52,976 nucleotides of DNA, from sequence record PZ049337.1. One strand, written 5' to 3'. Below the pieces are notes generated by a model. The model searched no databases. It was not told where the DNA came from and saw nothing but the letters and a program-made list of their open reading frames with translations. Position numbers and translations under genes: made by a program. Position 1 is the stretch's first letter. Every line of letters begins with the position of its first letter. Shown here piece after piece: positions 2,296 to 24,671 of this stretch. This stretch comes from a phage.

Positions 2296-4250
2296 TAGTG
2301 AATCTCTGCGTAGTTATCACCGAACTGTACATCACATGCACAATCACGGTTAAGTTTAAGTTCTTTGTTGGTTCGGTCCATTGCCTCATTAAGTAAGTCT
2401 GTCCACAAATCACGGAAACCTTTCTTAACTTGGAGAATCAATTCATCATGGAATTGTCCAGACAGAAGCGGGTCACAGCCCCAACGTTCGTTACAAATTG
2501 CAATAATGTTATTACACCAAATATCAAACACATATGCGCCAGTACCCTGACACAATGTGGAGAAGCGGTCTTTCTCTGTACGCAATGAATACCAGAATTT
2601 GTTTACTGGATTCTGTTGCCACATCTGACCATCAACTGTGATAACTTTAGTGTTAGCAGCAATTTCTTTGATAGACCAGTTCAAGTCCCAATATGCTTTA
2701 TGCAGTCGTGCAGCAGTATTCTGGTCGCAACCAGCAGAACGGGCTACAGTTGGTACACCAGCACCATACTGACAAGCATAGTTTGTGGTCTTAAACATTG
2801 GACGTTGTTTACACTTCTTAATTCCGTCCTTATGGTCCTGAGATTCTTGTTCGGTGATAAATCCACCAATTACGCCGATTGCAAGGTGAGCATCATAGTC
2901 TGGTGCCAACTGCTTCTTAACGTATTCAGGGTCATACATCCACTGGAAGTGGTGCTTACAGCGGTCTTCCAGTGAACACAAGTCAGAGCCTAACTGCTCG
3001 TAGTCTTCGCGCCACGCTTCCAACATTGAACGAAGCTCTTCACCGCCAAATACGCGAATAGAAGGGAGGTTAACAAGTTCGCGGTGTTTAAGACGTAAAG
3101 TATTGGTAAGACCACCGCATCTTGCAGTAAGGAATCCATCTTCATCGACGTCGCGAAGGAAGCCATTAACAACAGACAGACGGTGTTTATACACGCCCAT
3201 ACCAATAAGGTGTTGAATACCGGAGTCGGGGTTTCTTTCTGCCAGCTTATGCAAGCTCGGACAGATTTCAGGATTTCCATCTTCATCCTTCACAGTGATT
3301 TGCGGAATCTGGCGAGTTTCACCTGTTTCCTTGTTACGGTCAAACTTAAAGGTTTCCGGTTCCCAACCTAGGCTGAACAACCAATCTTTGATTTGAACAT
3401 GTGAACCAGCATTAGGCTTCTTATAACCTTTAAGAACCTTGATAGCCAGGTCTGGGTCTTTCCAGTCCAAACCGTTTGCATCACAAATAGCCTTCCACTT
3501 AATTCCAGTGGCAGACAGTTGCCCGTTCATTTTGTGGCATTTAGTTGGACGGGTTTTGATAACATATTCCGGAACACGCGGCATTGATGCTTCCAATGCG
3601 TCCGTCTTCTCTTTAATCATTGGTTCCAGCTTGGCCTTAAACGCCAATGCCTTCTCAATGTTCAGCTTCCAGCGAGTACGTTGTTGAATAACTTGTTGAC
3701 GAGCTTTTGTCATCAGGTATTCAACGAAGCGTTTAACTTCGCTAGGAGATTTATAAATCTTCAAGAGTTGGATGTATTGCTGTTCCCACAGCTTCAACTG
3801 AATCTTGCAGTCTTCCATCACACGATGGTTGTACTCTTCTTGAGTTTGATTTTCCCAATCTTCAATGACTGGTTTTGGCACACCAAACTCTTCGCCGTAA
3901 CCTTCTAAGCCGTGCTTAACACGACGAGGTTGCAGATACCAACTGATAAACAAAGTATCAATTAGTGTACATTTTGAAACGTCGTAGCCCAGGAACCTCA
4001 GTGCCTCAAAGTCGAAGGTTGCGCCATTGTGAGTACAAAATGTTGGACCAGTATCTAGGAAGTCCTGAATAGCCTTTCTTTCAGTCCATTCAAACACCTT
4101 CTCTTCACGAGAAACAACATCAATGATTCCCATGTTGTGCAAGCGCGGTGCTTCTTGCTTCTTCATTTGGTCCAGTAAGCCAGTGGTTTCAATATCCATA
4201 GCATACATATTGGAGTAAGGATACAACATTTCAGGCTCCGAACTATTCAA
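2295..4250 (-). CDS. DNA polymerase, family A, with 3'-5' exonuclease domain
   Basis: Exo I motif DIETTGL near N-terminus; Pol A motif B RPMFKTTNYACQYG (R-x3-K-x7-YG); motif C FHDEL. Confidence 0.8.
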   Translation of the reverse strand: MNSSEPEMLYPYSNMYAMDIETTGLLDQMKKQEAPRLHNMGIIDVVSREEKVFEWTERKAIQDFLDTGPTFCTHNGATFDFEALRFLGYDVSKCTLIDTLFISWYLQPRRVKHGLEGYGEEFGVPKPVIEDWENQTQEEYNHRVMEDCKIQLKLWEQQYIQLLKIYKSPSEVKRFVEYLMTKARQQVIQQRTRWKLNIEKALAFKAKLEPMIKEKTDALEASMPRVPEYVIKTRPTKCHKMNGQLSATGIKWKAICDANGLDWKDPDLAIKVLKGYKKPNAGSHVQIKDWLFSLGWEPETFKFDRNKETGETRQIPQITVKDEDGNPEICPSLHKLAERNPDSGIQHLIGMGVYKHRLSVVNGFLRDVDEDGFLTARCGGLTNTLRLKHRELVNLPSIRVFGGEELRSMLEAWREDYEQLGSDLCSLEDRCKHHFQWMYDPEYVKKQLAPDYDAHLAIGVIGGFITEQESQDHKDGIKKCKQRPMFKTTNYACQYGAGVPTVARSAGCDQNTAARLHKAYWDLNWSIKEIAANTKVITVDGQMWQQNPVNKFWYSLRTEKDRFSTLCQGTGAYVFDIWCNNIIAICNERWGCDPLLSGQFHDELILQVKKGFRDLWTDLLNEAMDRTNKELKLNRDCACDVQFGDNYAEIH

Positions 4251-4632
4251 TAGGTGTATTATTCATATGCCACAGGGTGTGACATTCTTTGCAAAGCCAA
4301 CGAACAACCTTTGGCTTATTGTAGTCGTCGTGATGTGCCTCAAGTTTCTTATCTTGGCAACATCCCATACAACGTGCAGGAGGAATCATCCCACGTACCG
4401 CGACTCTGGCAGCACGCTTCTTAGGATTTAACTCTGCATGTTTCTTAGACCTTGCCTTATTGAGTTCCCGCTCTCGTCCGATATTACGAACAGGCTTCTC
4501 TGGTAATGGTGCAGATTTGTACTCTGCGCGATACTTCAATTTCTTGCAAAGCTTACACCAAGATGAACTCTTGTGAAAGTTTGCTTCATCTTGAGGTACT
4601 TTGCACTTAGAACAAATTTTCATCATTTCCAA
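4243..4632 (-). CDS. HNH endonuclease with N-terminal zinc-finger
   Basis: CSKCK...CKLCK zinc knuckles and EAHHDDYNKPKVVRWLCKECHTLWH; overlaps the DNA polymerase start by 8 nt; paralog of 655..1083. Confidence 0.6.
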   Translation of the reverse strand: MEMMKICSKCKVPQDEANFHKSSSWCKLCKKLKYRAEYKSAPLPEKPVRNIGRERELNKARSKKHAELNPKKRAARVAVRGMIPPARCMGCCQDKKLEAHHDDYNKPKVVRWLCKECHTLWHMNNTPIE

Positions 4633-4687
4633 CTATTGTAAAGTGAGGTCTACGCTGGTGGGCGAACCATGCAGCGTAGAAGCTCTG

Positions 4688-6454
4688 TTATTGATGCGGA
4701 CCGTTCTTCTTAGTAAGTTGAACAATCTCTTTGGTTTCGAACAAGGAGTCGTCCCAAGAACGTTGAATGATTCGACCAGAGTCTGTGTCATAGTACGTCT
4801 TGAAGCCCTCTGTTTTACCACTCTTACGAGCTTTGATGGAACGAATAATAGAACAGTTTGGGTCTACTGCCTGACTATTACGCTCAAAACCAAACATACC
4901 ATGAGAATATTTAGCAGCAGCACGAGAGCCAGTAAAGTCTGACTTCTTAATACGTCCACCATCTTCATGAGGTCGCTGACCTTTTGCCACAGGGTTAAGG
5001 TGTGACAAGATATTAACATGGAACTGATATTGGTCTGCCAGCTTGGTAATGTCTGCATACAGCTTACCTAAGAAGTCGTTCTTCTCTGAGGCAGAAATCC
5101 CTTCTGATAAGTAGGTTAAGTTATCAAGAACAAACATATCAATGTCTGGACCAATCTGACGAAGAATCGTCTTTAACCCATCCCAAGTTTCATAAGGGTC
5201 TTCTCCAGCTTGCTTGCGGTCCCAAATCTCCATGTTACGAAGCATCTTCGCAGCAGTTTGACGGAACTTAGCTTCATCATATCGAGGGTCTTCACGAGTA
5301 AACGCGGGTTCCCAATATGGCAAGTTGTCGTTAAGGCCAGCCATTCGGCGTAATGTTTCCGCAGGAGTTTCCTCCATGTATGCAGTAAACACTCCCCAAT
5401 CATGCTGAACAATGTTGTGATGCACAATCTGTCGAGACAGTGTAGTCTTACCACCACCTTCTGCACCACCGATTGAGATAACTTCGGCACGACGTTGACC
5501 GAACATTAAGTCAGTCAGTTTGGGCCAAGGGTAGTCCACACCCTGTTCAACTTCGTCATCAAGCTCTTCCATAAGAAGTTCTTTGTTGACAAGTGCTGTA
5601 GGTAGAGGACGGGCAGCACGGAACACAACAGCAGATTGAGTAGCTTTAAGCAAGCCACGTTTCAAACAGTCGTTGGCATCGTTGGCAGGAAGTGTGGCAA
5701 TCATTGCACCAGGCAACAATCGACACGCTTCTTTTGCAGCTTTACGACCAGGTTCATCATCATCAAATACGATAACAACCTGCTCCCAACGTTGCTTAAT
5801 TTCTTCTGCAACTGGTGACAAACATTTGTGTACGGAATCACTTCCATCACTCAAACTAATTACAGCAAAATCCAAATCTTCATATGCACCACCACGGTTC
5901 ATAGTCTTGAGGATTTGACGCAATGCGATACAGTCTTCTTCACCTTCAGTGATGAACAATGTCTTACCGCCAATTGCTTTTGCAGCCAACCAATTGTAGG
6001 GTTCGTTGCCTTGAGTATCACCAACAGACCACATAACTTTCTTGTTCAGAAGTTTAATCTTCCAACGAACAAGTTTACCATTTTTGGTGTAGCCATGCGC
6101 CAAAGCATTTGGAGTCTTGCCATCAAACTCTGAATACAGAAGTCGGACACCAGCAGCTTTCCAAAATTCTGGTTCAATGCTGCGATGGTCTAAATCAAAC
6201 GGAGGACACGAGGTTACTTCGTCAATTTCTTCCTGAATTTCTTCTGGAGTCTTGACCTTAATTTCCGGAATATTCTCCGGATTATTGCCGTACGGATTCG
6301 GAACGAGAACGCCACATGCAAAGCAGTAACCAGAGAAGTTCTTATTACCAGCTTCATCGACATTCAACCAAACCTGTAAAGACTTGCCAGATGTGGATTT
6401 ACAGTCTGGTACATCGTGCTTAATCTTGGCAACACATTGCTTAACGTTCATCAT
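4688..6454 (-). CDS. bifunctional DNA primase/helicase (T7 gp4-like)
   Basis: N-terminal Cys4 zinc ribbon (CKSTSG...CFACG), central TOPRIM-like acidic region, Walker A GGAEGGGKTT of DnaB-type helicase. Confidence 0.8.
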   Translation of the reverse strand: MMNVKQCVAKIKHDVPDCKSTSGKSLQVWLNVDEAGNKNFSGYCFACGVLVPNPYGNNPENIPEIKVKTPEEIQEEIDEVTSCPPFDLDHRSIEPEFWKAAGVRLLYSEFDGKTPNALAHGYTKNGKLVRWKIKLLNKKVMWSVGDTQGNEPYNWLAAKAIGGKTLFITEGEEDCIALRQILKTMNRGGAYEDLDFAVISLSDGSDSVHKCLSPVAEEIKQRWEQVVIVFDDDEPGRKAAKEACRLLPGAMIATLPANDANDCLKRGLLKATQSAVVFRAARPLPTALVNKELLMEELDDEVEQGVDYPWPKLTDLMFGQRRAEVISIGGAEGGGKTTLSRQIVHHNIVQHDWGVFTAYMEETPAETLRRMAGLNDNLPYWEPAFTREDPRYDEAKFRQTAAKMLRNMEIWDRKQAGEDPYETWDGLKTILRQIGPDIDMFVLDNLTYLSEGISASEKNDFLGKLYADITKLADQYQFHVNILSHLNPVAKGQRPHEDGGRIKKSDFTGSRAAAKYSHGMFGFERNSQAVDPNCSIIRSIKARKSGKTEGFKTYYDTDSGRIIQRSWDDSLFETKEIVQLTKKNGPHQ

Positions 6455-7105
6455 TTATTCCTGTTTAATGAGTGCCTCCCAGCAAACAGGAAACAACTCT
6501 GACATAATTTTATTAACTTCTTCTGCAAACAAACGTGCCTCATATTGGGCGTGCTCTGTAGAGCGTTGCTTGTACATATTAGCCCAGCCCAGTAAAGAGC
6601 CAGTCCAAATCCATGTAGTCATCATGGATTGTGGCAACACCATTCGGGCTTGCTCTGGAGCAATCCCCAAACCAATTAACGTTTCATACTCTGCAATGCA
6701 AGCCTTGTTGTGGATTTCCATGCGATAGTGAATATCGTCAGCAAAATCCTGTGGCAATGGTTGTGCAGTCTGAGTCATCAACTTTTCAGGACGACCAAAC
6801 ACCACATCAGGTACAAAGCATTCAATTTCGATTGCTTCGCCATCTTTGTAACGACGGCTAACTTCGTTCCAACGAAAGCCCACCTGGTGCTTACCCAGCT
6901 GCCGCGCAATAAAGATTGGTGCTGTACAACGTAGTGTTACATACGCGTGGGCAAAAGGTGTATTGTGCTTATGCTTTGCGAGAAATTCAATCAGCTTCTC
7001 GTCGCGCAATGTCATCTCGTGGGACTCTGCACCATAAGAGGCTCGTGCAGCATTAACAGTTGTGAGGTCGCTGCCCATGTGGTCAACGAGTGTTGCAGTA
7101 ATCAT
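6455..7105 (-). CDS. thyX: flavin-dependent thymidylate synthase ThyX-like
   Basis: 216 aa; MGSDLTTVNAARASY...HNTPFAHAYVTL...APIFIARQLGKHQVGFRWNEVSRRY aligns with the ThyX signature region (from memory), but canonical RHR is KHQ here. Confidence 0.65.
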   Translation of the reverse strand: MITATLVDHMGSDLTTVNAARASYGAESHEMTLRDEKLIEFLAKHKHNTPFAHAYVTLRCTAPIFIARQLGKHQVGFRWNEVSRRYKDGEAIEIECFVPDVVFGRPEKLMTQTAQPLPQDFADDIHYRMEIHNKACIAEYETLIGLGIAPEQARMVLPQSMMTTWIWTGSLLGWANMYKQRSTEHAQYEARLFAEEVNKIMSELFPVCWEALIKQE

Positions 7106-7161
7106 TTGCTCTCCGGTTCATATGGTGGGAGATTAATTAGCTCCGCACCATAACAATGGTA

Positions 7162-7383
7162 TTATTTTAATGACGCCTGTAAAGACGCATTTAGTACACA
7201 ACGCTTCTCATATTCGCGATGGTTGTACGTGTTTGTCAGTGCTTCCGCAGCTTCTATTGACAAGATTGCAAAACCACCAAAGGCATTGCGAACTTCTTCA
7301 ATATCCATGTGCAGGACTTCACTTGTGATTTGGTTGGCTATTACGGCCTTATAAATCTCTTCGGCAATTTCAGCAGTTTTCAT
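7162..7383 (-). CDS. hypothetical protein (73 aa)
   Basis: Minus-strand ORF directly upstream of thyX; no motif recognised. Confidence 0.4.
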   Translation of the reverse strand: MKTAEIAEEIYKAVIANQITSEVLHMDIEEVRNAFGGFAILSIEAAEALTNTYNHREYEKRCVLNASLQASLK

Positions 7384-7794
7384 GTTTCTCTCCAGTTAAA
7401 ATTTAAGTAAGTGCCCTGACGTGGACTATTACGAACATTACAATACATTGGCTTAAATGATGTTTCCACTGCGGCCAAGACACTTATTAAATTTGATTCG
7501 AACCGCCCAAGTGAATCAGCCTTGTTTATGGGGACCATCGGGGAAAAGTATAAACCCGCTTAATGCTCGCATCATGTTTGAACATTAAGAACCCTTGACT
7601 TGCATATTTCATGTGAATAGGGGCATAGTCTATGTTTAATAGCTAACACCGGACAAGGAGGATTCCAGCTTAGAGCCTGAACTCAGTTCCCGACACATCA
7701 CAATCAGCGCAACTAAGCCGTATCGCTACGGTATGCCAGACGCTAACTTGAGCCTTTTGTACAGAGGCATAACTGTTTGGAAAGTGGCGGGCAC

Positions 7795-7863
7795 GTGACT
7801 GACATTTTGCACATTATGGAAGACGTTTTGCAACACATCTCCTAGTGACTGACATTTGCACTA
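7795..7863. repeat. direct repeat pair GTGACTGACATT(T)TGCAC
   Basis: Two near-identical 19-nt copies at 7795-7813 and 7845-7863 inside an ORF-free block. Confidence 0.5.
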
Positions 7864-7961
7864 GCCCATTGATTTGGTGGATTCGGTGAACCCTACGTTC
7901 ACAATTACACAGTCGGCCTCGGATGCTTCATCCCTATCCCATCGTGCAGGTTTCATTAACT

Positions 7962-8168
7962 CTACGAATCCATTGATTCTTTGTCAGGTTCTGACAGCAA
8001 ATTGCGGAGGAATGTATCCTCAGCGTTATAAAGAAATGCGTAGTAGAGTTGTTTAGCCTTGTTCCGGCTACATCCAAGAACTTGCATAATTTCTACATAC
8101 TGATACTGACGCACTCTATTATTAATGATTGCGTTACGAATGATTGCACGAATGCTAATTTTGTCCAT
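7962..8168 (-). CDS. hypothetical small protein, possible helix-turn-helix regulator
   Basis: 68 aa, basic; segment VRQYQYVEIMQVLGCSRNKAKQLYYAF resembles an HTH; flanked by ORF-free sequence. Confidence 0.3.
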   Translation of the reverse strand: MDKISIRAIIRNAIINNRVRQYQYVEIMQVLGCSRNKAKQLYYAFLYNAEDTFLRNLLSEPDKESMDS

Positions 8169-8594
8169 AGAAGACTACCTTATGTGATTGAGGTTGCGGC
8201 CTTTACGCGGCCAACGTGCCATTAATGCTGGCAAGACAGAGCTAACGTTCTCAAGCACTTTTGTCTAGGTCTGTTCCCGGCCACTGTTCTAGGAAGTGAC
8301 TACCTGAACTTTCTCGCGTTCAATACGAGGCAGCAATTTCAATTGTTATGCCCAGAGCAACTTGCAGGTTTGTTTGAGTTGGAGTCCTGCTTCCAAACGC
8401 ATGGAATTACACCACCAATACTACGAAGTAGCTAGAGTCTCGTTATTTAAAGTCGCGCACTCCCTCGACTGTGATATACGTGTGTTTAAAGTCCCGTACC
8501 GGACTGCCAAATGAAATGCGATGGCGAGCATTTGTTTGGCTGTCGTCACCTTGGTCAGTCTTTTACACCACCAACTAGCTAGGCCATGTTCAAC

Positions 8595-10810: not shown

Positions 10811-10827
10811 CCACATCCAATTAATGT
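10811..10827 (-). promoter_or_regulatory. copy of recurring 17-nt motif (minus strand ACATTAATTGGATGTGG)
   Basis: About 80 nt upstream of ATG 10732. Confidence 0.35.
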
Positions 10828-10856: not shown

Positions 10857-11531
10857 TCAATACATATTGAATCGTTCGATTGTTTTGATTACCAAATCCT
10901 TTGTCTCAGCGACAGTGAGTTCAGTGATGATTGATTCGTCATAACCCTCAATCTGGATTGCTACAAAACGCCCAACACCTGTTACGGTAAGTCGGTTGGT
11001 TCTGTCACGAACAACTACACCAGCTTCTTGCGCGACTGCTCGCAACAATTTCCAGCGTAAAGTTCGGTTTGGTACAGTAAAGCCCTTTGTCAAGAACAAC
11101 TCTTTCATGAGTTCTCCAAGGCAAACAGCTTCAATGTTTTTTCCTCTTCCAACTAATTCTTGCAACAGGCACAGCGTCAACATTTCTAAATTGTTGAAGT
11201 GACCAGCGCGCTCCAAATTAAAGAACTCTGGAGGAACAGTTGAACGAGATTTAACAGCTTGCTTATATGCACGTTCTTCTTCCTGTGCAGCAAGCATTAG
11301 CATCTCTGGCTTAATGTATTTCATAGCAGAGAAGCCAGCGCGTGTGGCTTTAATTATGCGACAAGCCTCTTTCATCTTGTAGCGTTGCCACTCACCGCGC
11401 TTCGATTCTGGATTAAAATGGACCCACATAATGATAACATCTTCCTTGGCAAGATAGACGGCATCATTATCATTGAGCCATTGCTTGCACGTTGATAGTG
11501 CAATCTCTTTGTCATCATCATGATAAGACAT
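10857..11531 (-). CDS. hypothetical protein (about 224 aa)
   Basis: Track ORF 10857..11588; ATG at 11531 (MSYHDDD...) has AGG Shine-Dalgarno and sits 1 nt after the upstream stop. Confidence 0.45.
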   Translation of the reverse strand: MSYHDDDKEIALSTCKQWLNDNDAVYLAKEDVIIMWVHFNPESKRGEWQRYKMKEACRIIKATRAGFSAMKYIKPEMLMLAAQEEERAYKQAVKSRSTVPPEFFNLERAGHFNNLEMLTLCLLQELVGRGKNIEAVCLGELMKELFLTKGFTVPNRTLRWKLLRAVAQEAGVVVRDRTNRLTVTGVGRFVAIQIEGYDESIITELTVAETKDLVIKTIERFNMY

Positions 11532-12783: not shown

Positions 12784-12800
12784 TCAATTCCAACTAATGT
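12784..12800 (-). promoter_or_regulatory. copy of recurring 17-nt motif (minus strand ACATTAGTTGGAATTGA)
   Basis: In ORF-free region 12150-13010. Confidence 0.3.
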
Positions 12801-12924: not shown

Positions 12925-12941
12925 TCAAATCCCACTAATGC
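12925..12941 (-). promoter_or_regulatory. copy of recurring motif, degenerate (minus strand GCATTAGTGGGATTTGA)
   Basis: Adjacent to hairpin 12949-12995. Confidence 0.25.
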
Positions 12942-14975: not shown

Positions 14976-15331
14976 TTCTTCTCCGTACAGCTGGTGGATA
15001 AAACAGGATAGTTTGCTTTGAGGAAATCTCCATCACGGAAAATCTGAAGTACAAGTTTGTCTTCATGATTTATAAACAGTGCAGCAAACCTGCTATCTTT
15101 AATGTTGTAAAACAAAACTGTTGCAGGATTTGGTTCATCGCTTGGAACCTCCATCCAAACACCAGCTTCAGGAATTATTGACGCAATCAGAGGTTGGCTG
15201 TCTCCAATATTATCAATTACAAGAGCATACGCTCCGCATTTGAAGTTCTTTGTTGACGCTTTGGACTCAAAGCTGAAGAACGCCAAAACAATTAATGCTA
15301 AAGTATAAATGATGATGTACTTAAGTTTCAT
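14972..15331 (-). CDS. secreted/periplasmic hypothetical protein
   Basis: N-terminal signal-peptide-like MKLKYIIIYTLALIVLAFFSFESKAS. Confidence 0.45.
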   Translation of the reverse strand: MKLKYIIIYTLALIVLAFFSFESKASTKNFKCGAYALVIDNIGDSQPLIASIIPEAGVWMEVPSDEPNPATVLFYNIKDSRFAALFINHEDKLVLQIFRDGDFLKANYPVLSTSCTEKK

Positions 15332-15383
15332 AATTCCTCCAATAATTAATCGAGGCCACTCGAAGTGGAATGGCCTCTGTTAA

Positions 15384-16088
15384 TTACAGCTTCTTGATAA
15401 GCTCTGCGGATTTGCTTGCAGCAACTTTCATTTCATCGCGTGCGGCTTTGGTGATTGATGCCTTATCCACGCGAATGTTACAGTTGCCGATTGCAATCTT
15501 GCCATCTTCTGTTGGTGCAAGTTGCTGTAAGTCGAGCATTTGCTCCAGCTTTTGCAGAAGAATACGTTGTGCTTCGATTGCATTTTGAATATTTAAAGTT
15601 TCCATTACTGCTCTTACCTTTCTTGAATAAGTTTCAAATAATGATAGGCGCACTTGCAAACCTTTTACGCCATCACAGTCAAAATTGACTTTGTTGAATG
15701 GTGAATTTGGATGCTTATATACATTTGTAACAGTTTTCCAATTACCCTTATGCAAGATAACATCACCAACTTCCACATCAGCGCCTTTAACATCCTCTTC
15801 ATCTGAGAATGGTTTCACTGCTTCACCATAAGGGAGAAACACTGGTGTTATCTGTGTGCTGAATGTCGCTGTTGGAGTCCCCAAAGCTGGTGGCCTGTCG
15901 AGCACTTTGACTATGCGGCCAAATTCAAAATTGTAGTACCCACCAGAATATTGCAACTGAACTGCATCACTAAACCGGAGGATGTTTTCAATCCGGTATT
16001 CCCTGTTGCCGTAAACCAATACATCACCAGGCTTTACCAAATTGGCAGGTATTTCGACAAATTTAGTTCCCATTATGGTATTCCTCAC
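15384..16088 (-). CDS. hypothetical protein (about 230 aa)
   Basis: Largest early-region ORF; no motif recognised. Confidence 0.45.
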   Translation of the reverse strand: MRNTIMGTKFVEIPANLVKPGDVLVYGNREYRIENILRFSDAVQLQYSGGYYNFEFGRIVKVLDRPPALGTPTATFSTQITPVFLPYGEAVKPFSDEEDVKGADVEVGDVILHKGNWKTVTNVYKHPNSPFNKVNFDCDGVKGLQVRLSLFETYSRKVRAVMETLNIQNAIEAQRILLQKLEQMLDLQQLAPTEDGKIAIGNCNIRVDKASITKAARDEMKVAASKSAELIKKL

Positions 16089-16197
16089 GCATTGCTGAAC
16101 AGTGCTTACACACCCAAAAGGTTACATAATCGTTTTCATGTGAAATTTCCCAATTATGTAGCCCTATAAAACATAAAATTTTCATAGGGCATCCCAA

Positions 16198-16551
16198 TTA
16201 GAATGGAATATCGTCGTCGAAGTCTTTCGGCTCGTTCGGATTGTAATTGCTCTGCTGTTGCTGAGCAGAAGGTTGCTGACGTTGCTGTCGCTGTTGAGCA
16301 GCGGCTTGAGGTTGAGCTTTGGCTTTAGCTTTCTCTTCACGCTTACGCATCATTTCATCAACCTGTTCTTGGGTCATGATGGTCAATGCAAGTGAGGTAA
16401 ATTCATTACCATTTGCTTGCTTGTTCCAGCCAGATACCCAATACCAGATTCCGTCAACGTTAATACGTCCACGAACGTCGGGATGTTTTGGGTCTTTCTT
16501 GAAGCCATTGGAACCGATGATGCCAGTGTTTACGTCTGAATATTGTGCCAT
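16198..16551 (-). CDS. small protein carrying a host-SSB-like C-terminal tip (DFDDDIPF)
   Basis: 117 aa; ATG at 16551 with Shine-Dalgarno; Gln/Ala-rich linker then NEPKDFDDDIPF, matching the E. coli SSB tip as I recall it; N-terminal domain about 70 aa, too short for a canonical OB fold. Confidence 0.55.
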   Translation of the reverse strand: MAQYSDVNTGIIGSNGFKKDPKHPDVRGRINVDGIWYWVSGWNKQANGNEFTSLALTIMTQEQVDEMMRKREEKAKAKAQPQAAAQQRQQRQQPSAQQQQSNYNPNEPKDFDDDIPF

Positions 16552-16623
16552 GATTAAGATTCTCTTAAGTTAATTACAGTTTAAGTTTCAGTGACATTGC
16601 TAACCACGGAATAGCTTTGTCTC

Positions 16624-16640
16624 TCACATCCAACTAATGT
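16624..16640 (-). promoter_or_regulatory. copy of recurring 17-nt motif (minus strand ACATTAGTTGGATGTGA)
   Basis: 73 nt upstream of ATG 16551; identical 17-mer at 20704-20720. Confidence 0.4.
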
Positions 16641-16680
16641 TGAATTAATCAGGAACACTCAATGAATGCTCCTTGTTAAT

Positions 16681-16968
16681 TTACATCGACTTGGAAATAG
16701 GAATCGGGTCAATGTTTGATTCAGGTTTATACCAGCTTACTTCACCAGAATCTTTCACAAGCTCCCACAAATTGGAGAATGTACGATAGAGTAGAACTTT
16801 GTTATCATCAATAACGACAAAACCCAAAGGAGATTGAATATACGCACCCAATGTACCACTGTTTCGAGGAACTCCGTCACCACGACCTGCGACGATTTTG
16901 TACTTCTTGCCTTTGGTGAAGCTGGAATTAGTTTCACCAACATATTTAACGATTGAATTCTTGTTCAT
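16681..16968 (-). CDS. hypothetical protein (95 aa)
   Basis: Minus-strand ORF. Confidence 0.4.
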   Translation of the reverse strand: MNKNSIVKYVGETNSSFTKGKKYKIVAGRGDGVPRNSGTLGAYIQSPLGFVVIDDNKVLLYRTFSNLWELVKDSGEVSWYKPESNIDPIPISKSM

Positions 16969-17198
16969 TGCTTTAGTTTCTCCAAAGCGGATAATACGGA
17001 ATCACCAGAACCACTAATTACAAGCGTTTCCCCTGGAAGATTGTAGGATATATAAGAGAACGTCCATTTTACAACAGTTCTCTGATATGAGGAGCTGTAT
17101 TTATCAGACAGCTCTATATCTTGCCTTGCATCGTTTAGTAAGAACTCCTGCCCATCAATAGTCAGTTGCTTAAACATTTCGATATGACTCTTACCCAC
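16965..17198 (-). CDS. hypothetical protein (77 aa)
   Basis: Minus-strand ORF. Confidence 0.4.
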   Translation of the reverse strand: MGKSHIEMFKQLTIDGQEFLLNDARQDIELSDKYSSSYQRTVVKWTFSYISYNLPGETLVISGSGDSVLSALEKLKQ

Positions 17199-17481
17199 GC
17201 TTCACCTTCTCCCATTTAGATAAACCACCCTCAAGACTGAATACGCGGTTACAACCAGATTCATCTTTAATGACGAATTGAGTTCCGGTTAACTGAACTG
17301 GCTCAAGTGCACCAAACAACACTTTAGGTTTTGACAAGCTGGTGGCAAGAACTTTGTATGCTTTGCTTGGGCAAATGTCAAAAGCAAAGTCACGAGTGTA
17401 AACTAAGTCACCAACCTTCAAATATGCTGGTAACAAGCGACCTGTGGCTGGGTCACGTTGTAAACGAGTACGTTGTTTCAT
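17191..17481 (-). CDS. hypothetical protein (96 aa)
   Basis: Minus-strand ORF. Confidence 0.4.
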   Translation of the reverse strand: MKQRTRLQRDPATGRLLPAYLKVGDLVYTRDFAFDICPSKAYKVLATSLSKPKVLFGALEPVQLTGTQFVIKDESGCNRVFSLEGGLSKWEKVKRG

Positions 17482-17544
17482 AAATGCTCCAAGTTAATTA
17501 ATAATATTCAGCAACCACTCTCATTATGAGAATGGTTGAGGAAA

Positions 17545-17796
17545 TTATTTAACTTCTTCCCAGGACCAGACACTGCCTTTTAGCGGAACGCTTTCACCAG
17601 CATTCCAGTAAGGTTTTCCATCAACATCCTTGTGGTCACTATCTTTCAAAAGGTTTATGCGAGCTTCCACACCGTATTCTCGCTGAACATGTACAAGTTC
17701 TCCCTCAAGCACGACACCAACCTGCGGAGAATACTCCCCAGAAGATGTTGATTTTACACATTTAAACTTTGTCATTGTAATACACCTTGTTCGCAA
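17545..17796 (-). CDS. hypothetical protein (83 aa), tandem paralog of 17772..17999
   Basis: Shares N-terminal M(T)KFKCV.S...VG...EGE.V pattern with the neighbour. Confidence 0.4.
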   Translation of the reverse strand: MRTRCITMTKFKCVKSTSSGEYSPQVGVVLEGELVHVQREYGVEARINLLKDSDHKDVDGKPYWNAGESVPLKGSVWSWEEVK

Positions 17797-17999
17797 ATAT
17801 CTGCAAACTCTGCACGATGGTCACGCTGCCATGTCCAGAATGCACCATTCATAGGAACAACAGCGCCTTTACGAAATGCTGGAGAAATACTCTCAGCAGA
17901 TTTGGTAACTTTAAATTCTAAAGGTGAAACAGCTTCACCCTCGATGATTAGGCCAACTGGGACGTAGTCTTTGTTGGAAGCAACACATTTAAATTTCAT
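17772..17999 (-). CDS. hypothetical protein (75 aa), tandem paralog of 17545..17796
   Basis: MKFKCVASNKDYVPVGLIIEGEAV... Confidence 0.4.
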   Translation of the reverse strand: MKFKCVASNKDYVPVGLIIEGEAVSPLEFKVTKSAESISPAFRKGAVVPMNGAFWTWQRDHRAEFADICEQGVLQ

Positions 18000-18001
18000 G
18001 G

Positions 18002-18184
18002 TTATCCTCTTGGTGGAATATTTCCACTATTATCTATAAGTTTACCGCGATAAATATTTAAACCACAATCTGCACAGAATGCGTTATCCAGAACTACGGG
18101 ACCATACATTCCCACAGCTTCATGAGCCACATGGTCTACATTATTGCTGCCACACTTTGGGCAAACAACATCATCCTCATTCAT
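18002..18184 (-). CDS. zinc-ribbon small protein
   Basis: CPKCGS...CADCG double CxxC. Confidence 0.4.
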   Translation of the reverse strand: MNEDDVVCPKCGSNNVDHVAHEAVGMYGPVVLDNAFCADCGLNIYRGKLIDNSGNIPPRG

Positions 18185-18488
18185 GGTATAAAACTCCCAA
18201 TTCAGATTCTAATTTAAATTCACGGAAGAAATCCATTGTTACAAATCGGACTTTACCTTCGTCATCAACTACGTTACAGGAAATGTCGGAGTGGACCATC
18301 CTGCCTAGCTTCAGAGCAACTTCTGAAAGATTCGCTTCGCCAGTCCCTGAGATTACACGGTAGATGCGATACGGTGTAAAGCCGCTTAAAGAGTTATTAC
18401 GGCTTGGGACAATCATCATGCCTGTTCTAGTAGCCATAATAACTCCAATATTAAAAGTACATGAATGCGCCAATAGTAAGTAGCACAA
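18177..18488 (-). CDS. hypothetical protein (103 aa)
   Basis: Minus-strand ORF. Confidence 0.4.
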   Translation of the reverse strand: MCYLLLAHSCTFNIGVIMATRTGMMIVPSRNNSLSGFTPYRIYRVISGTGEANLSEVALKLGRMVHSDISCNVVDDEGKVRFVTMDFFREFKLESELGVLYHE

Positions 18489-18709
18489 GTGGAAACATCA
18501 GAATGCAGAATACTAATTTCTTAACAATGTCCATTATTTCACCAGGAAGTAGAGAACAATAGCAACACCAACACATGCAATGATTGTTGGCATATAATTA
18601 TCAATTTTACGATATTGACGTTCGACTGGCTTCTTGCCTTTAATAGCATCCATCAATTCTTGATGATTAATCTGCTGCATGAATGTGTTAAATTGCTGGT
18701 CGTTCATTA

Positions 18710-18958
18710 TCACATACCTTTGTAGGACATAAAGTTGTTAATCAAACTGTCCATGATTCGGTCAGTCATAACATCTTTATTGAATTGTCTTTTTGTGATT
18801 TCGATGCCGAAATCGTTTTTAACTTCCTTAACTACATCACTTACTGGAAGGTGTATCCAATTATTAAAGTTGACAACAAGACGCTCCTGGATGAACTCAA
18901 TCTTTTCTTCATAAGAGGCCAACTCGATTAAGTCAGCCTTCAATTTAAACTGTGTCAT
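18710..18958 (-). CDS. hypothetical protein (82 aa)
   Basis: Minus-strand ORF. Confidence 0.4.
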   Translation of the reverse strand: MTQFKLKADLIELASYEEKIEFIQERLVVNFNNWIHLPVSDVVKEVKNDFGIEITKRQFNKDVMTDRIMDSLINNFMSYKGM

Positions 18959-19143
18959 TTAGCCTCCAGAATTTGGCTTAATGAACTGAACACGATTTCC
19001 TCATGTTCATCAGGTGTACATGCGTTGATGTATTCAAAGTCATACCCAACAAACTTCTCCGCCCACTCCTGTAAACGAAGTAAAGAATTGAAGTACAAAC
19101 GTTGCTCTACGCCATTTAACTTAAAGTAGACGATGAAGTCCAT
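18955..19143 (-). CDS. hypothetical protein (62 aa)
   Basis: Minus-strand ORF. Confidence 0.35.
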   Translation of the reverse strand: MDFIVYFKLNGVEQRLYFNSLLRLQEWAEKFVGYDFEYINACTPDEHEEIVFSSLSQILEAK

Positions 19144-19145
19144 GA

Positions 19146-19448
19146 TTAACCTCTTACTTTCAGGAAATCTGGATGTGCGGCAGTTGCCACAACTTTGTGA
19201 TGTTTGTCATTCTGGATTGCTTGCCAAACATATTCAGGATATGCGGCATTATTCCACACCAGCTTGTTTTCGTAAATTGATGTATAAGATATTAAGTCTG
19301 CCAACATTATTGCTCTGGTTTTAGTATTAACCAAAGCATGAGAAACAACACCATCACGATTGATATATTGATACAGTGCGTAATCCATTTCAGAATCCTT
19401 TAGTGTACCCAACAGTTTTGCGCAGAATGATTTCATCATTTGAATCAT
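19146..19448 (-). CDS. hypothetical protein (100 aa)
   Basis: Minus-strand ORF. Confidence 0.4.
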   Translation of the reverse strand: MIQMMKSFCAKLLGTLKDSEMDYALYQYINRDGVVSHALVNTKTRAIMLADLISYTSIYENKLVWNNAAYPEYVWQAIQNDKHHKVVATAAHPDFLKVRG

Positions 19449-19638
19449 CTGGCTCTAATTCGATTTCAATATTGACAACAATATTGTCACTAAAAGTACA
19501 TGCCTTACTTGAATCAAAGAACTTTACAGCATTATACTTATCTGACTCATTTACTTTAACCCACTTCACAGAACGAACAGTAAAGATTTGTCCATCTTGC
19601 AGGTCTTTAAAGTAAGCCGCTTTAGTAACAGTATCCAT
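19390..19638 (-). CDS. hypothetical protein (82 aa), first gene after the 1.1-kb repeat region
   Basis: Minus-strand ORF; start may be downstream of the listed one. Confidence 0.4.
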   Translation of the reverse strand: MDTVTKAAYFKDLQDGQIFTVRSVKWVKVNESDKYNAVKFFDSSKACTFSDNIVVNIEIELEPDDSNDEIILRKTVGYTKGF

Positions 19639-19832
19639 TTTATTCTCCTAAGTTAAAAGAAAACTCCCGTCATAACGATTGTGGAGGTCTTGTGTTACCT
19701 TAATCCACCTTAAAGAATCAGGGAGTATGTGACACAACAAGTGCCGAAAACTACAATGATTAGCTTGGAGACATAATCTCTCTAAAATCTGTCACACAAT
19801 TTCAGCAGAATTTACAGAGATTTGGTCTTATT

Positions 19833-19849
19833 CACATGCAACTAATGAT
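19833..19849 (-). promoter_or_regulatory. copy of recurring motif (minus strand TCATTAGTTGCATGTGA)
   Basis: 195 nt upstream of gene start 19638. Confidence 0.3.
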
Positions 19850-20039
19850 AAATGAACATGCTTAATTGCAACCAATTCATCTGCCAAATAGACGAATTTA
19901 GTCACAATCAAACATGCATCATTAATTACAGGTTTACTCCCACCTTGAATGTATTTGGCACATTAAGATTGGAGCAAGCAGGTACGGAAAACCGACCATG
20001 TACAGCATAATAAAACTAATTAAATAAAGGGTTTTATCC

Positions 20040-20312
20040 CAATATTGTCACAATATTTACATGCGATGATAAAGCCTTCGCTTGGCTGGAAGCCAGTATT
20101 CATGCGGGTTGCAAGAATATTGGGTGAATATTGATACATTTATTACATGCGAAATTGGCACAAATATTGTTACAAAATTAACATGCCGGATTGGTAGACA
20201 ATTGTATCTTCGAGGTGATTAGTCCTCTAACAATTCTGCCACATTCTAACATGCCAATTTGTAGCAATATTTACATGCCATACTGTGACGCAATTGTCAC
20301 AATATTTGTTGC
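20040..20312. repeat. iteron-like array of about 25-nt direct repeats (AATATTGnnACAnnATTTACATGC)
   Basis: Copies at 20040-20065, 20126-20151, 20162-20187, 20231-20255, 20256-20279, partial 20291-20312; further isolated ACATGC boxes across 19835-20660. Confidence 0.55.
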
Positions 20313-20703
20313 TCAAAATCGGGGCGGGCTACGGGATTAGTTTCGCGGCTTTGCTCCGACTCTTCTCTTCTTTCGAATTCTGATTGAAAGAAAGAAGCAT
20401 GTCCAAAAGTTCCAATATTACCAAAGTTATCTCCCGGCTTGTGGGTGGGCCTTTATAATAGGAGATGTGGCTCAATTGTCGCTAATAGACATGCTATAGG
20501 TGAAGAACAGTTTCGAATAATATTCCTACTTCACACATGGTTGCTGGAACTTTGTCCGGCCAAAGACAGGGAGTTCAATGATTGCCACATCATTACAACA
20601 CTGTATGTTTAGTTGACATGCTGAAATGTTTCTAGAATGATTTCAACATGACATGCGGAAACCCACGAACAACGTGAGTAATACTTCTCCGTATTCTGTT
20701 ACT

Positions 20704-20720
20704 TCACATCCAACTAATGT
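20704..20720 (-). promoter_or_regulatory. copy of recurring 17-nt motif (identical to 16624-16640)
   Basis: Exact 17-mer TCACATCCAACTAATGT on plus strand. Confidence 0.35.
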
Positions 20721-20794
20721 TACAGATGGCTACAATATTGAAGCCAGCTCTAAGATTAATTGAAACAAGAAAAGGGAGCCGAAGCTCCCAAATA

Positions 20795-21031
20795 TCAGAA
20801 CGGTATCTCTGTATCAAAGTATCCAGAATTGTGTAAGAATGCGTGCAATAATACATGCGACTCTTGTTTATATTCTGCTAACAACTCTAAGAAGTCTTTA
20901 GTCTCATTCACTGTGGGACGAGATAAGTTGCTCATGTCACAGGTGTGGTGAGGATTGAAACAGTTTTCGATTTGATTGATTTGTTGAGTATTCATTGTAG
21001 TCTCCAATTTGTTATAGTCATCCTTGACCAA
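20795..21031 (-). CDS. hypothetical protein (78 aa) ending ...FDTEIPF
   Basis: Immediately downstream of the RNA polymerase gene; SSB-tip-like C-terminus. Confidence 0.45.
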   Translation of the reverse strand: MVKDDYNKLETTMNTQQINQIENCFNPHHTCDMSNLSRPTVNETKDFLELLAEYKQESHVLLHAFLHNSGYFDTEIPF

Positions 21032-21041
21032 TTAATCCTAA

Positions 21042-22982
21042 TTATTGACAGAAGTAGTAAGCGTGTTCGCTCATCAGAAGCTCTTCAGTTACGATATTCT
21101 CATGATACATCTGAATGCCACCGAGTTGCTTAGACAGATTCTCGAATTGATTGTTGGTTACGAAGATTTCAACATATGCTGCACGAATAACTTCCATCAT
21201 ACGTGGAGCATCAGCTAAGCAGCAACGGAAACAGTCATGGATTGAAGTGAAACCACGAAGACCAGCTTCTTTAGCCTTAACTGCAACAGTACGAGCAACC
21301 AACGCGTCAATACCTTGAATGTAGTTAACAACGAAGGTACGCTTGAACTCTTCTTTAGTTGGGTTGGACTCACGAATGGTCCAAGGCTTATTCTCCTGAA
21401 TCTGACCAAAGATAACACGAGTTTGAGAGTCAACACGAATGCTGAATGCCTCACAGATTTCACGAGATGGGAAGCAAGGCTTCATTACAACCTGACCATC
21501 AGTGTGCTTATAGGTGATGTACTCTTTGTTGAGTTCAACACAACGAGCAAATGCAGCATCAGCAGCTTTCTCAATGAACATGTTAATCTTAGCACCCAAT
21601 GCGTTATGGATTGCTTCTACACACAGTTCAGCAAATGCCTCAGCTTTCTCCATAGGAATCTGAAGAGATGCAGTCATGTAGGAGATAAAGTCAGAAGAAC
21701 CAGTTAATGCTGCTTTACCACCACCATATTGGATAGCCATGTATGGAGTTTTGATAAACTTACGACCAGCTTTCGGATTCAAGAATTCATCCATAATTTC
21801 AGGAGATGGTTTCATTGAAGAACGGTCTAATAACTTTAACAGTTCACGAAGAGATAACTGGTATGGGTCAGATGCTTTAGTCTCAGAATCAACCAGACCT
21901 GTTGCACGAGCCATCTCCATGTTACCAGCAATGAATGCCAGATATTGAGTACCAGAACATTTAGCATCTAAGCCAAAGCCTACACGAGAATCACACTCAC
22001 CTGTAGTCTCAAACTTGAACCAATCCAGAGCCAGACGAACATAAGTGAATGGCTTAGAAGGACGTTCAGCTTTAGGCATGTTCATCATGCGAGCAAGTGA
22101 ACCAGCTGGATTCTGAGCAACATAGGTCAAACGTTTAGCACTGCACCATTCACCACCAGAAATATCTTCCAGCTCAGCCATGAACATGTTGTATGCAATG
22201 GTAGTAGAACCATCTTCGTTAAACTTCTTAACGATGTTCTCAACATTGTGAGAATACAGGCAACGAGCAAAGTCAGATGATTGTGGGTTAGGACCAGCAC
22301 ATGCTACATGATACAGGCGACCACGGTTATCAGCAAAGTAGTCAGAATAGAGTGTATCCTGAGTCATCATTGCTACAGCATTGTTCCAAACATGGAGTTC
22401 AGTCTGGATTGCTTCTGGCATCTGCAAACCACCGTAGGTACGTTGTTCAATCATGGACTGAATGATGCGAACCATTTCAGTCTCCACATGGTACTCAGTA
22501 TCTTGCAGGAATTCGATTGCAGCTTTCAGAGTCTTGGATGGCTTAACTTTGCCACCTTTAACGAAAGGCTTGCGACGAGATTCAGATGTAACACGCTCAG
22601 TGAATGGCACTGCTGTGTCTTTGGTTGTAACCAGCTCAACCCATGTATCAGTTTGTTGGAATGACTTGTCTTCGTTCATGGTGATGAAGCCAAAGTGTTT
22701 AGCTAAACCAATGAGGTTGATAGCTGGGTCAACATAGTGCATTGATTTCAAGTCGTTGTTATAGCGGTTGGCATCAGCAATAGAAGAAGAAGCCAGTTCA
22801 ACCATTGCAATGGCTGGGACAACATCATCACGAGTGAATGACGTCATCATCTTGAAGATTGCAAGAGCAGCAATAGCACAGGTCTGAGGCTGCATATAGT
22901 TCTGTTTCTCTTTGGCACGATATACCAGAGCCGTGATAGCAGGGACAACGGATTTGATAGTTTGAGTGGTGATAGTAGTCAT
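21042..22982 (-). CDS. single-subunit DNA-directed RNA polymerase (T7-like), N-terminally short (646 aa)
   Basis: DNRGRLYHV...NPQ matches T7 DWRGRVYAV...NPQ; CSGTQY versus T7 CSGIQH; motif B RKFIKTPYMAIQYG (R-x3-K-x3-M-x3-YG); motif C IHDCF; GGAG Shine-Dalgarno before ATG 22982. T7 comparisons are from memory. Confidence 0.8.
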   Translation of the reverse strand: MTTITTQTIKSVVPAITALVYRAKEKQNYMQPQTCAIAALAIFKMMTSFTRDDVVPAIAMVELASSSIADANRYNNDLKSMHYVDPAINLIGLAKHFGFITMNEDKSFQQTDTWVELVTTKDTAVPFTERVTSESRRKPFVKGGKVKPSKTLKAAIEFLQDTEYHVETEMVRIIQSMIEQRTYGGLQMPEAIQTELHVWNNAVAMMTQDTLYSDYFADNRGRLYHVACAGPNPQSSDFARCLYSHNVENIVKKFNEDGSTTIAYNMFMAELEDISGGEWCSAKRLTYVAQNPAGSLARMMNMPKAERPSKPFTYVRLALDWFKFETTGECDSRVGFGLDAKCSGTQYLAFIAGNMEMARATGLVDSETKASDPYQLSLRELLKLLDRSSMKPSPEIMDEFLNPKAGRKFIKTPYMAIQYGGGKAALTGSSDFISYMTASLQIPMEKAEAFAELCVEAIHNALGAKINMFIEKAADAAFARCVELNKEYITYKHTDGQVVMKPCFPSREICEAFSIRVDSQTRVIFGQIQENKPWTIRESNPTKEEFKRTFVVNYIQGIDALVARTVAVKAKEAGLRGFTSIHDCFRCCLADAPRMMEVIRAAYVEIFVTNNQFENLSKQLGGIQMYHENIVTEELLMSEHAYYFCQ

Positions 22983-23049
22983 TTGTAAGTCTCCAAGATT
23001 GTGTATGATTTAACTGAAACGGATTATAATAGCGTAGCCATTACACAAT

Positions 23050-23066
23050 TCACTTCCAACTAATAT
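23050..23066 (-). promoter_or_regulatory. copy of recurring 17-nt motif (minus strand ATATTAGTTGGAAGTGA)
   Basis: 68 nt upstream of the RNA polymerase ATG; a TATAAT-like hexamer lies about 25 nt downstream of it. Confidence 0.35.
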
Positions 23067-23170
23067 CACAAACCTGTGCCATTGTTAGCACAGCACGGAG
23101 ACTTTGACCTTGACTCATAAGCGAAGCGCCTAACTTGGTGTTATCATTAAGCCGATAGGCTGTAGAAAAA

Positions 23171-23229
23171 GTTGGGGTAGGGACCGTATTTTAAGTCCGA
23201 TAGGACGTTGGGCTTCCCCTCCCCGCGAC
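23171..23229 (-). terminator. possible intrinsic terminator after the late/nrdB transcription unit
   Basis: Minus strand GGGGAGGGG...CCCTACCCC stem (one mismatch, one G-U) followed by AACTTTTTC; loop is long, so uncertain. Confidence 0.3.
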
Positions 23230-23242
23230 CTCAAAAATAAAA

Positions 23243-23470
23243 ATTAATATTGCCACAATTCGAGTCTCATTAATATTGAAACAATTTGAGTCTCATTAAT
23301 TTTGTAGCAATATTAAAATAAAAAAAAATTATAAAAAAAAAATTATTTCATAGTCAGACAACTGTTCGAAAAAATTTCGGCGAGATACAGCTGACCGACC
23401 ATGTACCATTTGGTTTTGAACTTTACGCATTCCTAATATTACTCTTAATATTGTAGCAATATTGGGAATA
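23243..23470. repeat. AT-rich repeat region (24-nt direct repeat, A-tracts, TGTAGCAATATT boxes)
   Basis: CACAATTCGAGTCTCATTAATATT (23254-23277) and AACAATTTGAGTCTCATTAATTTT (23280-23303); poly-A runs 23318-23345; TGTAGCAATATT at 23298 and 23452, related to the 20040-20312 array. Confidence 0.5.
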
Positions 23471-23552
23471 AATAAATATTTAATTTACTTGTTTTATTCT
23501 AGCTCAAAGAGAAACGACGCTAACGCATCGAATCTCTTCTCACATATAATCG

Positions 23553-24671
23553 TTAAAGCTCAAATCCGCCCAGAGCATTGGTGTCAACTTCGGAGTCAAT
23601 CTGCCCGACAAGGTACGAACTAATCTCCGTTTCTTGTGGAGCAACCTGTACAGCATCCGAGTTCAGCCATGCGTTAATCCAAGGAATCGGGTTAGTTGCA
23701 CCTTTGAATGGGGCATCTAATCCAACTGCTTGCATACGAATATTCGTAATATATTCCACATATCCGCACAGAATTTGCTTGTTTAAGCCAATCATGGAGC
23801 CATCTTTGAACAAATAATCGGCCCAATCTTTCTCTTGTTGGGCAGCATCTTCGAACAATTTCTGGCATTCTTCACGACATTCTTGAGCAATTTCTCCCAT
23901 TTCTGGGTCATCTTTACCACTCGCAAGAATATTCAACATGTGCTGAGTTCCGGTCAAATGGAGTGCTTCATCTCGTGCAATCAGTCGAATAATCTTGGCA
24001 TTTCCTTCCATTAACTTGCGTTCAGCGAAGGCAAATGAGCAAGCAAAACTAACATAAAAGCGGATTGCTTCTAGTGCATTGATAGACATGAGGCATAAAT
24101 AGAGCTTCTTCTTCAACTCACGCAGACTAATTTCGTGACCAGCATGGTTCCCTTCTCCGAACAACTGCCATAATGCAGTGAGTTGTTGAAGTTCGTCATA
24201 ATACTGGGAGATGCCAATTGCTCGTGCTTTGATATGTTCGTTAGTTACGATTTCATCAAAGATAATGCTTGGGTCTGTAACGATGTTTCGAATAATGTGG
24301 GTGTAAGAACGTGAATGGATAGTCTCAGAGAAAGACCAAGTTTCAATCCAAGTTTCAAGCTCAGGAATGCTCACGATTGGAAGCAAAACTGTGTTAGGTC
24401 CACGTCCCTGAATGGAGTCCAGAAGGATTTGATAGCGCAAATTACTGGTGAAAATGTGCTGCTCATTTGGTGGGAGCTTCTGGTAATCAATACGGTCTTG
24501 TGAAACATCTACCTCCTCCGGTCGCCAGAAGAATGACAATTGTTTCTCAATCAACTTCTCGAATATGCCATACTTCTGTTGGTCATAGCGAGCAACGTTG
24601 ACGTTCTGACCAAAGAACATTGGTTCTAATAGTTGGTTATTCTTGGTTTGTGAAAAGGTAGTGTAAGACAT
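23553..24671 (-). CDS. nrdB: ribonucleotide reductase class Ia small subunit
   Basis: 372 aa; N-terminus [34 protein letters not shown]... closely resembles E. coli NrdB as I recall it; [17 protein letters not shown] (radical Tyr) and RDEALH iron ligands present. Confidence 0.9.

Follow-up and report, generated by a model that had tools for sequence, protein, structure and literature searches.

The stretch of DNA analysed here, called the window throughout (52,976 nt), is the near-complete genome of a Chaseviridae myophage of the genus Carltongylesvirus, subfamily Cleopatravirinae. The assignment to family, subfamily and genus is the classification given in the record of phage flopper. When positions 15000–24000 were compared with GenBank phages by megablast, identities of about 90% were obtained with Shigella phage 2KOFFS and with Escherichia phages Ecp_YSF, Bp10, flopper and MLP1. 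The type phage of the genus, phiEcoM-GJ1 (GJ1), is a different phage from that of the window and is likewise about 90% identical. The minus strand carries all the long ORFs, and Pfam identified among them genes for a single-subunit RNA polymerase, a family A DNA polymerase, a primase/helicase, ThyX, NrdB and a terminase. An earlier note on this DNA had stated that a T7-like RNA polymerase was encoded, and its gene was found at 21042–22982 on the minus strand (gp01, 646 aa; PF00940, E = 4.5e-18). ARAGORN detected no tRNA gene in the window; GJ1, PM1 and Myduc each have one (tRNA-Arg or tRNA-Cys) in the corresponding region.

A perfect copy of the 17-nt motif ACATTAGTTGGATGTGA occupies positions 16624–16640 of the minus strand, 72 nt upstream of the SSB gene (16198–16551). 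The earlier note had reported that this motif recurs upstream of genes and that the copy at 20704–20720 is identical to the one at 16624, and both observations were confirmed. With up to three mismatches allowed, nine copies were found, exclusively on the minus (coding) strand, against an expectation of 0.24 (mean of dinucleotide shuffles), and not one of 100 shuffles reached nine. Two further copies are weak, those at 35347–35363 (15–17 bits, five mismatches to the 17-mer) and 49664–49680 (9–12 bits, four mismatches), and the rest score 24–37 bits. These two, which the note had listed among the near-identical copies, are nevertheless kept at the same sites in relatives. All but two of the positions given in the note were exact; the copies placed at 2053–2069 and 19833–19849 lie at 2054–2070 and 19832–19848. 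A strong copy at 4623–4639 and a divergent one at 11143–11159, the homolog of GJ1 promoter 6, had been overlooked.

Most copies are intergenic (those at 2054 and 11143 lie within coding sequence and the one at 4623 overlaps a start codon), and several stand directly behind terminator-like hairpins. Along the minus strand, the copy ATATTAGTTGGAAGTGA (23050–23066) is separated by 67 nt from the RNAP start codon on its downstream side and by 7 nt from a hairpin with a T-rich tail (23074–23093) on its upstream side. On the other side of the polymerase gene, the perfect copy at 20704–20720 (P1) lies 322 nt past the stop codon and 54 nt downstream of a terminator-like hairpin, GGGAGCTTCGGCTCCC followed by TTTT (20774–20789); P1 itself is followed by the conserved sequence AGTAACAGAATACGGAGAAG and then by an ORF-poor stretch. 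P2, with the sequence TCATTAGTTGCATGTGA (19832–19848), precedes the first small early/middle ORF by 193 nt. Beyond the SSB-upstream copy there is a tandem pair, the upstream member of which (12925–12941) lies behind a hairpin and the downstream member of which reads ACATTAGTTGGAATTGA (12784–12800). Next on this strand are the divergent and doubtful copy GAATTAGTTGGAAGAGG inside a gp28-like ORF (11143–11159) and the copy ACATTAATTGGATGTGG (10811–10827), 45 nt upstream of a gp29-like gene. The copy ACAATAGTTGGAAATGA (4623–4639) is situated between the primase/helicase gene and an HNH-endonuclease-like ORF, the ATG of which falls within the motif; it may have arrived with a mobile endonuclease gene or may be a chance SD-like match. 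This ORF (4243–4632, minus strand, start ATGATGAAAATTTGTTCTAAGTGC..) lies between the primase/helicase and DNA polymerase genes. The copy GTATTAGTTGGATATGA (2054–2070) occupies the 3′ end of a gp38-like ORF, 62 nt upstream of a gp39-like gene. The weaker "late" variant ATATTAGTTGAACATGT (35347–35363) is found directly downstream of a terminator-like hairpin, TGCCGGGATTCGTCTCGGCA followed by a T-rich tail (35374–35393), and ends 14 or about 24 nt before the start codon of the baseplate hub gene; the hairpins that relatives have at this site differ in sequence. The weak variant CCATTAGTGGATTGTGA (49664–49680) precedes the ATG of the terminase gene by 23 nt, and GJ1, 4HA13 and Myduc share it in this position. 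These positions agree with what had been noted before, namely that six copies lie shortly before start codons, including those of the RNAP and terminase genes (they end 14–72 nt before them), and that two, at 23050 and 35347, directly follow hairpins. A 1229-aa virion protein, the homolog of GJ1 gp62, is encoded at 35399–39088 (minus strand) and has a YqaJ-like recombinase/exonuclease domain (residues 458–590) and a C-terminal SLT lytic transglycosylase domain; the GC-richest stretch of the window (36–38 kb, GC 0.51) falls inside this gene.

In relatives the genome is linear, with a direct terminal repeat of about 3 kb, and the window is a circularly permuted form of such a genome. The records of 4HA13, Myduc (ends mapped by PhageTerm), Y2 and PM1, used as references for the left end, all begin ...AATACGGTCCCTAC..., which has its counterpart at about 23193 in the window. 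The physical left end of the genome in the window is probably located there (..CCTATCGGAC|TTAAAATACGGTCCC..), and the direct terminal repeat would extend for about 2.9 kb, from about 23193 to about 20300. Such a left end would place the 23050 copy about 125 nt from the physical end of the DNA, and the 23050 copy, the polymerase gene, the hairpin 20789–20774 and P1 would all be within the repeat. The polymerase gene, since it would lie inside the direct terminal repeat, would be present twice in each virion DNA. The AT-rich, sigma-70-like region at 23250–23460 is outside the repeat and adjoins its right-hand copy, and it is the counterpart of the region in which GJ1 has an annotated sigma-70 promoter.

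The motif is an already known prediction, and its detection here is a re-discovery. The RefSeq record of GJ1 (NC_010106) contains nine regulatory/promoter features, named putative phage promoter 1–9, and these are the motif of the window (for example CGACATTAGTTGGATGTGAA, TATCATTAGTTGCATGTGAA and CAACATTAGTTGGATGTGAG); several of the 20-mers are identical in the two phages or differ by one or two bases. GJ1 promoters 1–9 correspond to the window copies at 20704, 19832, 16624, 12925, 12784, 11143, 10811, 2054 and 35347, in the same gene order. The strand and the sites are also the same: after the RNAP gene, upstream of SSB, the tandem pair, and upstream of the gp29, gp39 and baseplate hub genes. 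The GJ1 annotation omits the RNAP-upstream copy and the terminase variant, although the GJ1 sequence has both. The window has an extra copy, at 4623, and it is without a copy that GJ1 has just after the RNAP stop codon, so that the number of promoter copies varies within the genus. This GJ1 copy, the motif-like GCATTAGTTGTTAATGA at 2639–2655 (19 bits), is 38 nt past the polymerase stop and is absent at 20980–21070 of the window. The weight-matrix search that the earlier note had proposed as a check was run with a matrix that was independent of the window, being built from the nine annotated GJ1 20-mers alone. At a cut-off of at least 12 bits it detected 12 matches on the coding strand of the window (12–30 bits) and none on the antisense strand; in first-order Markov random genomes the mean was 0.55 matches and the maximum four.

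A related proposal exists for phage PP101 of the same family, for which eight consensus promoters of the phage polymerase were hypothesised (Lukianova et al. 2020, PMC6989608), a statement repeated in a review (PMC8472413). As in the window, a consensus for the single-subunit polymerase is spread along a unidirectional genome; the two consensus sequences were compared by description only. The PP101 GenBank record contains no promoter features; the motif of the window is present in PM1, which is closely related to PP101. According to the ICTV profile, promoters of chaseviruses have not been identified, which makes the motif an obvious candidate to test. No promoter analysis was found in the papers on ST32, PYps23T and Tiny, and a full-text search with the string ATTAGTTGG returned unrelated papers only. 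The literature searched, of which the original GJ1 and Y2 papers were not part, contained no experimental support in the form of a TSS map, in vitro transcription or rifampicin experiments, and it contained neither Chaseviridae transcription start sites nor orthogonal-polymerase work. The candidate has been public since the GJ1 annotation, and our analysis therefore adds no new kind of element. What it adds is the conservation at syntenic sites across genera, the extent of the element, the rejection of the sigma-70/MotA and hairpin readings, and the contrast with the sister subfamily.

The comparison with related genomes, also suggested in the earlier note, was carried out with six Cleopatravirinae genomes: the window, GJ1, 4HA13 (Sabourvirus), Y2 (Loessnervirus), PM1 (Suwonvirus) and Myduc (Myducvirus). 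The motif was rediscovered de novo in all six by a seed count restricted to non-coding DNA. This restriction was used since a whole-genome count of 14-mer seeds (three mismatches) was swamped by codon-periodic repeats of the GCTGCTG type. In matrix scans of the five other genomes, the polymerases of which are 66–92% identical to that of the window, the motif occupied shared syntenic sites, so that five genera are covered in all. Close to the polymerase gene, it is found just upstream (or upstream of a small ORF that precedes the gene) in five of the five, and again downstream, where the conserved sequence AGTAACAGAA... comes after it. Elsewhere the shared sites are upstream of SSB (GJ1, 4HA13, Y2, PM1 and Myduc), at the tandem pair that follows the antirestriction-gene cluster and upstream of the gp29 and gp39 homologs, and weak variants are found 23 nt before the terminase ATG and behind the terminator hairpin before the baseplate hub gene. 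When the regions upstream of SSB and downstream of the polymerase gene were aligned with MAFFT, the motif stood out as the main block of invariant columns between diverging flanks, and P1 was the most conserved island of the six-genome alignment of the latter region. Small genus-level preferences were visible, with GGAATTGA in 4HA13 and GTTGAGTGTGA in Myduc. An exact 16-mer was present at 28 loci in IMG/VR, 15 of them related to chaseviruses; the other 13 are unrelated single matches, roughly at chance level by our estimate.

Different results were obtained for the sister subfamily. The two Nefertitivirinae genomes examined, with polymerases 33–35% identical to that of the window, gave only noise-level matches to the motif. 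Vibrio phage VPs20 has another repeated sequence, GCTCGCCCACTAGA, with nine matches within three mismatches (about seven of them close), all on the coding strand and three of them just downstream of its polymerase gene, and this sequence is a candidate promoter of the VPs20 polymerase. No clear recurrent motif was found in Shewanella phage Spp001. A change of motif together with the polymerase may thus be seen in a single clear contrast between the subfamilies, that with VPs20. The VPs20 copies are located at 2317–8237 and at 20996, often with GGGCTCG before them, and TATAAT-like arrays follow the VPs20 polymerase gene.

The extent of the element was determined from an alignment of 65 unique sites of the six Cleopatravirinae genomes. 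The conserved block measures about 21–23 bp, c-T-(G/T)-a-a-ACATTAGTTGGATGTGA-a-(g/t), and reaches from about 4 nt before the 17-mer to 2 nt beyond it. Within the 17-mer, practically no variation is seen at G10 and G16, the loosest positions are 11, 13 and 14, and the approximately 10 nt that follow the block are purine/A-rich. The block is asymmetric and has no dyad. Such length and asymmetry are typical of the promoters of monomeric single-subunit polymerases. Transcription would start at G16/A17, because the invariant G16 stands between loosely conserved bases and a purine-rich run, and because the shortest distance between motif and ATG (about 14–24 nt) leaves room only for a Shine–Dalgarno sequence.

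The enzyme presumed to read the motif is intact. A phmmer search with the polymerase against PDB sequences found no match at E = 1e-3, and a profile comparison with T7 RNAP was therefore needed. In hhalign, a profile of eight chasevirus polymerases matched T7 RNAP with 95% probability, residues 97–642 aligning with T7 residues 234–882. The catalytic T7 residues D537, K631, Y639, H811 and D812 correspond to D339, K411, Y419, H582 and D583, which are invariant in eight of the eight chasevirus enzymes, and the polymerase looks functional. The aligned part is preceded by 96 residues in the window enzyme and by 233 in T7. T7 residues 1–233 include the AT-rich recognition loop, and since only 96 residues precede the aligned part, the region of this loop is without an aligned counterpart; upstream recognition can for that reason not be assumed to be T7-like. 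The segment aligned with the specificity loop (SIRVDSQTRVIFGQ..ENKPWTIRE) is well conserved in Cleopatravirinae and quite different in Nefertitivirinae, and the Myduc enzyme has an insertion in it. In overall length, the polymerase has 646 aa against 883 aa for T7 RNAP; the Nefertitivirinae homologs have 718–781 aa and extra N-terminal sequence.

Between the left end and the start of the polymerase gene, a simple scan found no good sigma-70 promoter in 4HA13 and Myduc, and only weak 9-of-12 candidates in Y2 and PM1. The stretches concerned are 22983–23193 in the window, 1–420 in L003 and 1–215 in L006. A conserved leader, GGCTACGC..AATCCGTTTCA, is present upstream of the polymerase gene in the window, GJ1, 4HA13 and Y2 and partly in PM1 and Myduc.

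The copies of the motif are most probably promoters of the phage single-subunit RNA polymerase, as the earlier note had suggested in the first place. The single orientation, the asymmetric element of about 21–23 bp, its position after hairpins and before gene clusters, its conservation at syntenic sites and its apparent replacement in one member of the sister subfamily (VPs20) all support this reading. From the sequence we infer that the polymerase binds the motif, where it starts and in what order the copies are used. The polymerase gene, in the first ~2 kb of the linear genome, would presumably be transcribed first by the host RNA polymerase. The phage enzyme would then bind the ~21–23-bp duplex, c-T-G/T-a-a-ACATTAGTTGGATGTGA-a-g, as a monomer and in one orientation, the less conserved A/T-rich positions 11–15 would be melted, and RNA synthesis would proceed from or just after the invariant G16 (GA...) into the purine-rich initial sequence. 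The co-directional gene clusters downstream would be transcribed in this way, with hairpin terminators punctuating the units, several of them immediately before the next promoter. Near-consensus copies would serve the early/middle and DNA-metabolism genes, and the weaker variants the late genes for terminase and baseplate hub; the RNAP-upstream copy, in a position like that of T7 phiOL, could provide positive feedback. A counterpoint to this scheme is that the late region of about 28 kb holds only two copies, both weak.

The class II/III promoters of T7, T3, SP6 and K11 (23 bp, -17 to +6) share with the motif the asymmetric duplex element of about 20–23 bp in a single orientation. T7-type promoters resemble it further in their purine-rich start, their place after terminators and the homologous polymerase. 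The layout is parallel as well, since T7 has phiOL near its left end and phi1.1A/B just after gene 1, as the window has the 23050 copy and the copies after the polymerase gene. The upstream ATTAG of the motif resembles, we presume, positions -16 to -12 of the K11 and SP6 promoters. However, the conserved -7 to +1 core of T7, T3 and SP6, CACTATAG, is absent, the window consensus being ...GTTGGATGTGAAG; because this core is missing, the motif does not belong to the T7/T3/SP6 sequence family and is a functional analogue only. The T7 class III promoters are also strong, whereas the late copies of the window are few and weak.

More tentatively, and with the odds in our judgement against it in this full form, the motif could be the cognate promoter of an unusually small, 646-aa polymerase that is without a counterpart of the N-terminal ~230 residues of T7 RNAP, so that the upstream half (ctgaaACATTA) would be read by a different structural solution, and enzyme and ~22-bp promoter would form a compact orthogonal pair. 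The terminal-repeat copies, one at about 125 nt from the end of the genome and two bordering the ORF-poor GCATGT...TGTGACAATATT array, might then serve autoregulation and transcription-activated replication in the manner of T7 phiOL and phi1.1A/B. Motif and polymerase could yield a small orthogonal polymerase–promoter pair, and defining the motif would complete the transcription map of a family used in biocontrol work (Y2, GJ1 and PM1/PP101).

An alternative, which we consider improbable, is that the motif is a box for a phage activator, as the earlier note had suggested with the T4 MotA box as model, or for a sigma-like factor, redirecting the host RNA polymerase in the manner of T4 MotA/AsiA or gp55. 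T4 MotA middle promoters likewise have a recurrent box upstream of phage genes, the TATAAT reported after the 23050 copy is indeed present, 22 nt downstream of it, the 12784 copy can be read as TTGGAA-17-GATAAT, and 20 early/middle ORFs of no known function leave room for an unrecognised factor. MotA promoters, however, have a sigma-70 -10 element at a fixed spacing of about 12 bp, and among the 65 unique sites no -10-like signal at a fixed distance was detected, the information content being at most ~0.2 bits at every position from +20 to +52. In the absence of such a hexamer the architecture of a MotA box with a sigma-70 -10 is unsupported. Because there is no conserved downstream position, the TATAAT of the 23050 copy is an isolated case, and it has no -35 at the proper spacing. 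Of the nine strong copies, a simple sigma-70 scan recognised just one, and sigma-70-like sites were fewer in the region (25) than in shuffles (35). No match to sigma, MotA or AsiA-like families was found in PHROGs among the 20 early/middle ORFs, all the matches being to families of unknown function. If the motif were such a box, the intact dedicated polymerase would be left without a candidate promoter.

It is less probable still that the motif, instead of being a promoter, is bound by a regulator, for instance a repressor or a protein of replication or packaging. A conserved, recurrent and mostly intergenic sequence would suit a regulator, and the ORF-poor, repeat-rich stretch that follows the polymerase gene, a possible origin, is bordered by two of the copies. 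The asymmetric motif nevertheless shows none of the dyad or direct-repeat substructure typical of dimeric binders, and its strict co-orientation and its place before gene clusters throughout the genome fit a promoter better than an origin or a pac site. The least probable reading, to which we give hardly any weight, is an RNA element (a processing site, translational operator or antitermination signal) or an extruded hairpin promoter of the kind used by the N4 virion RNAP, which would suit the constant coding-strand position and the short inverted repeat ACAT...ATGT of the consensus, but nine folded copies had no common structure (z-scores -2.7 to +0.8), just 10 of the 46 unique sites can form all four possible ACAT/ATGT pairs and the changes are uncompensated, the start codon lies anywhere between 14 and more than 190 nt away, a spread that speaks against a translational operator, and Rfam gave no match in the window.

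A second repeat family, unrelated to the promoter motif, was also observed. About 11 copies of GCATGT-N7-8-TGTGACAAT(ATT), all in the same orientation, lie at 19839–20656 (minus strand) in the ORF-poor stretch of about 1.1 kb after the polymerase gene. Four copies of a near-palindrome, AATATTGnnnCAATATT, are located at 23246–23463, upstream of the terminal repeat, and for this palindrome 19 matches were counted against 4.5 expected. Each of the five other Cleopatravirinae genomes has the GCATGT array, and the palindrome was seen in at least GJ1, 4HA13 and Y2. One copy in GJ1 overlaps the annotated sigma-70 promoter. The repeats might be host promoters of the extended -10 type (TGnTACAAT), operator sites or iterons of an origin.
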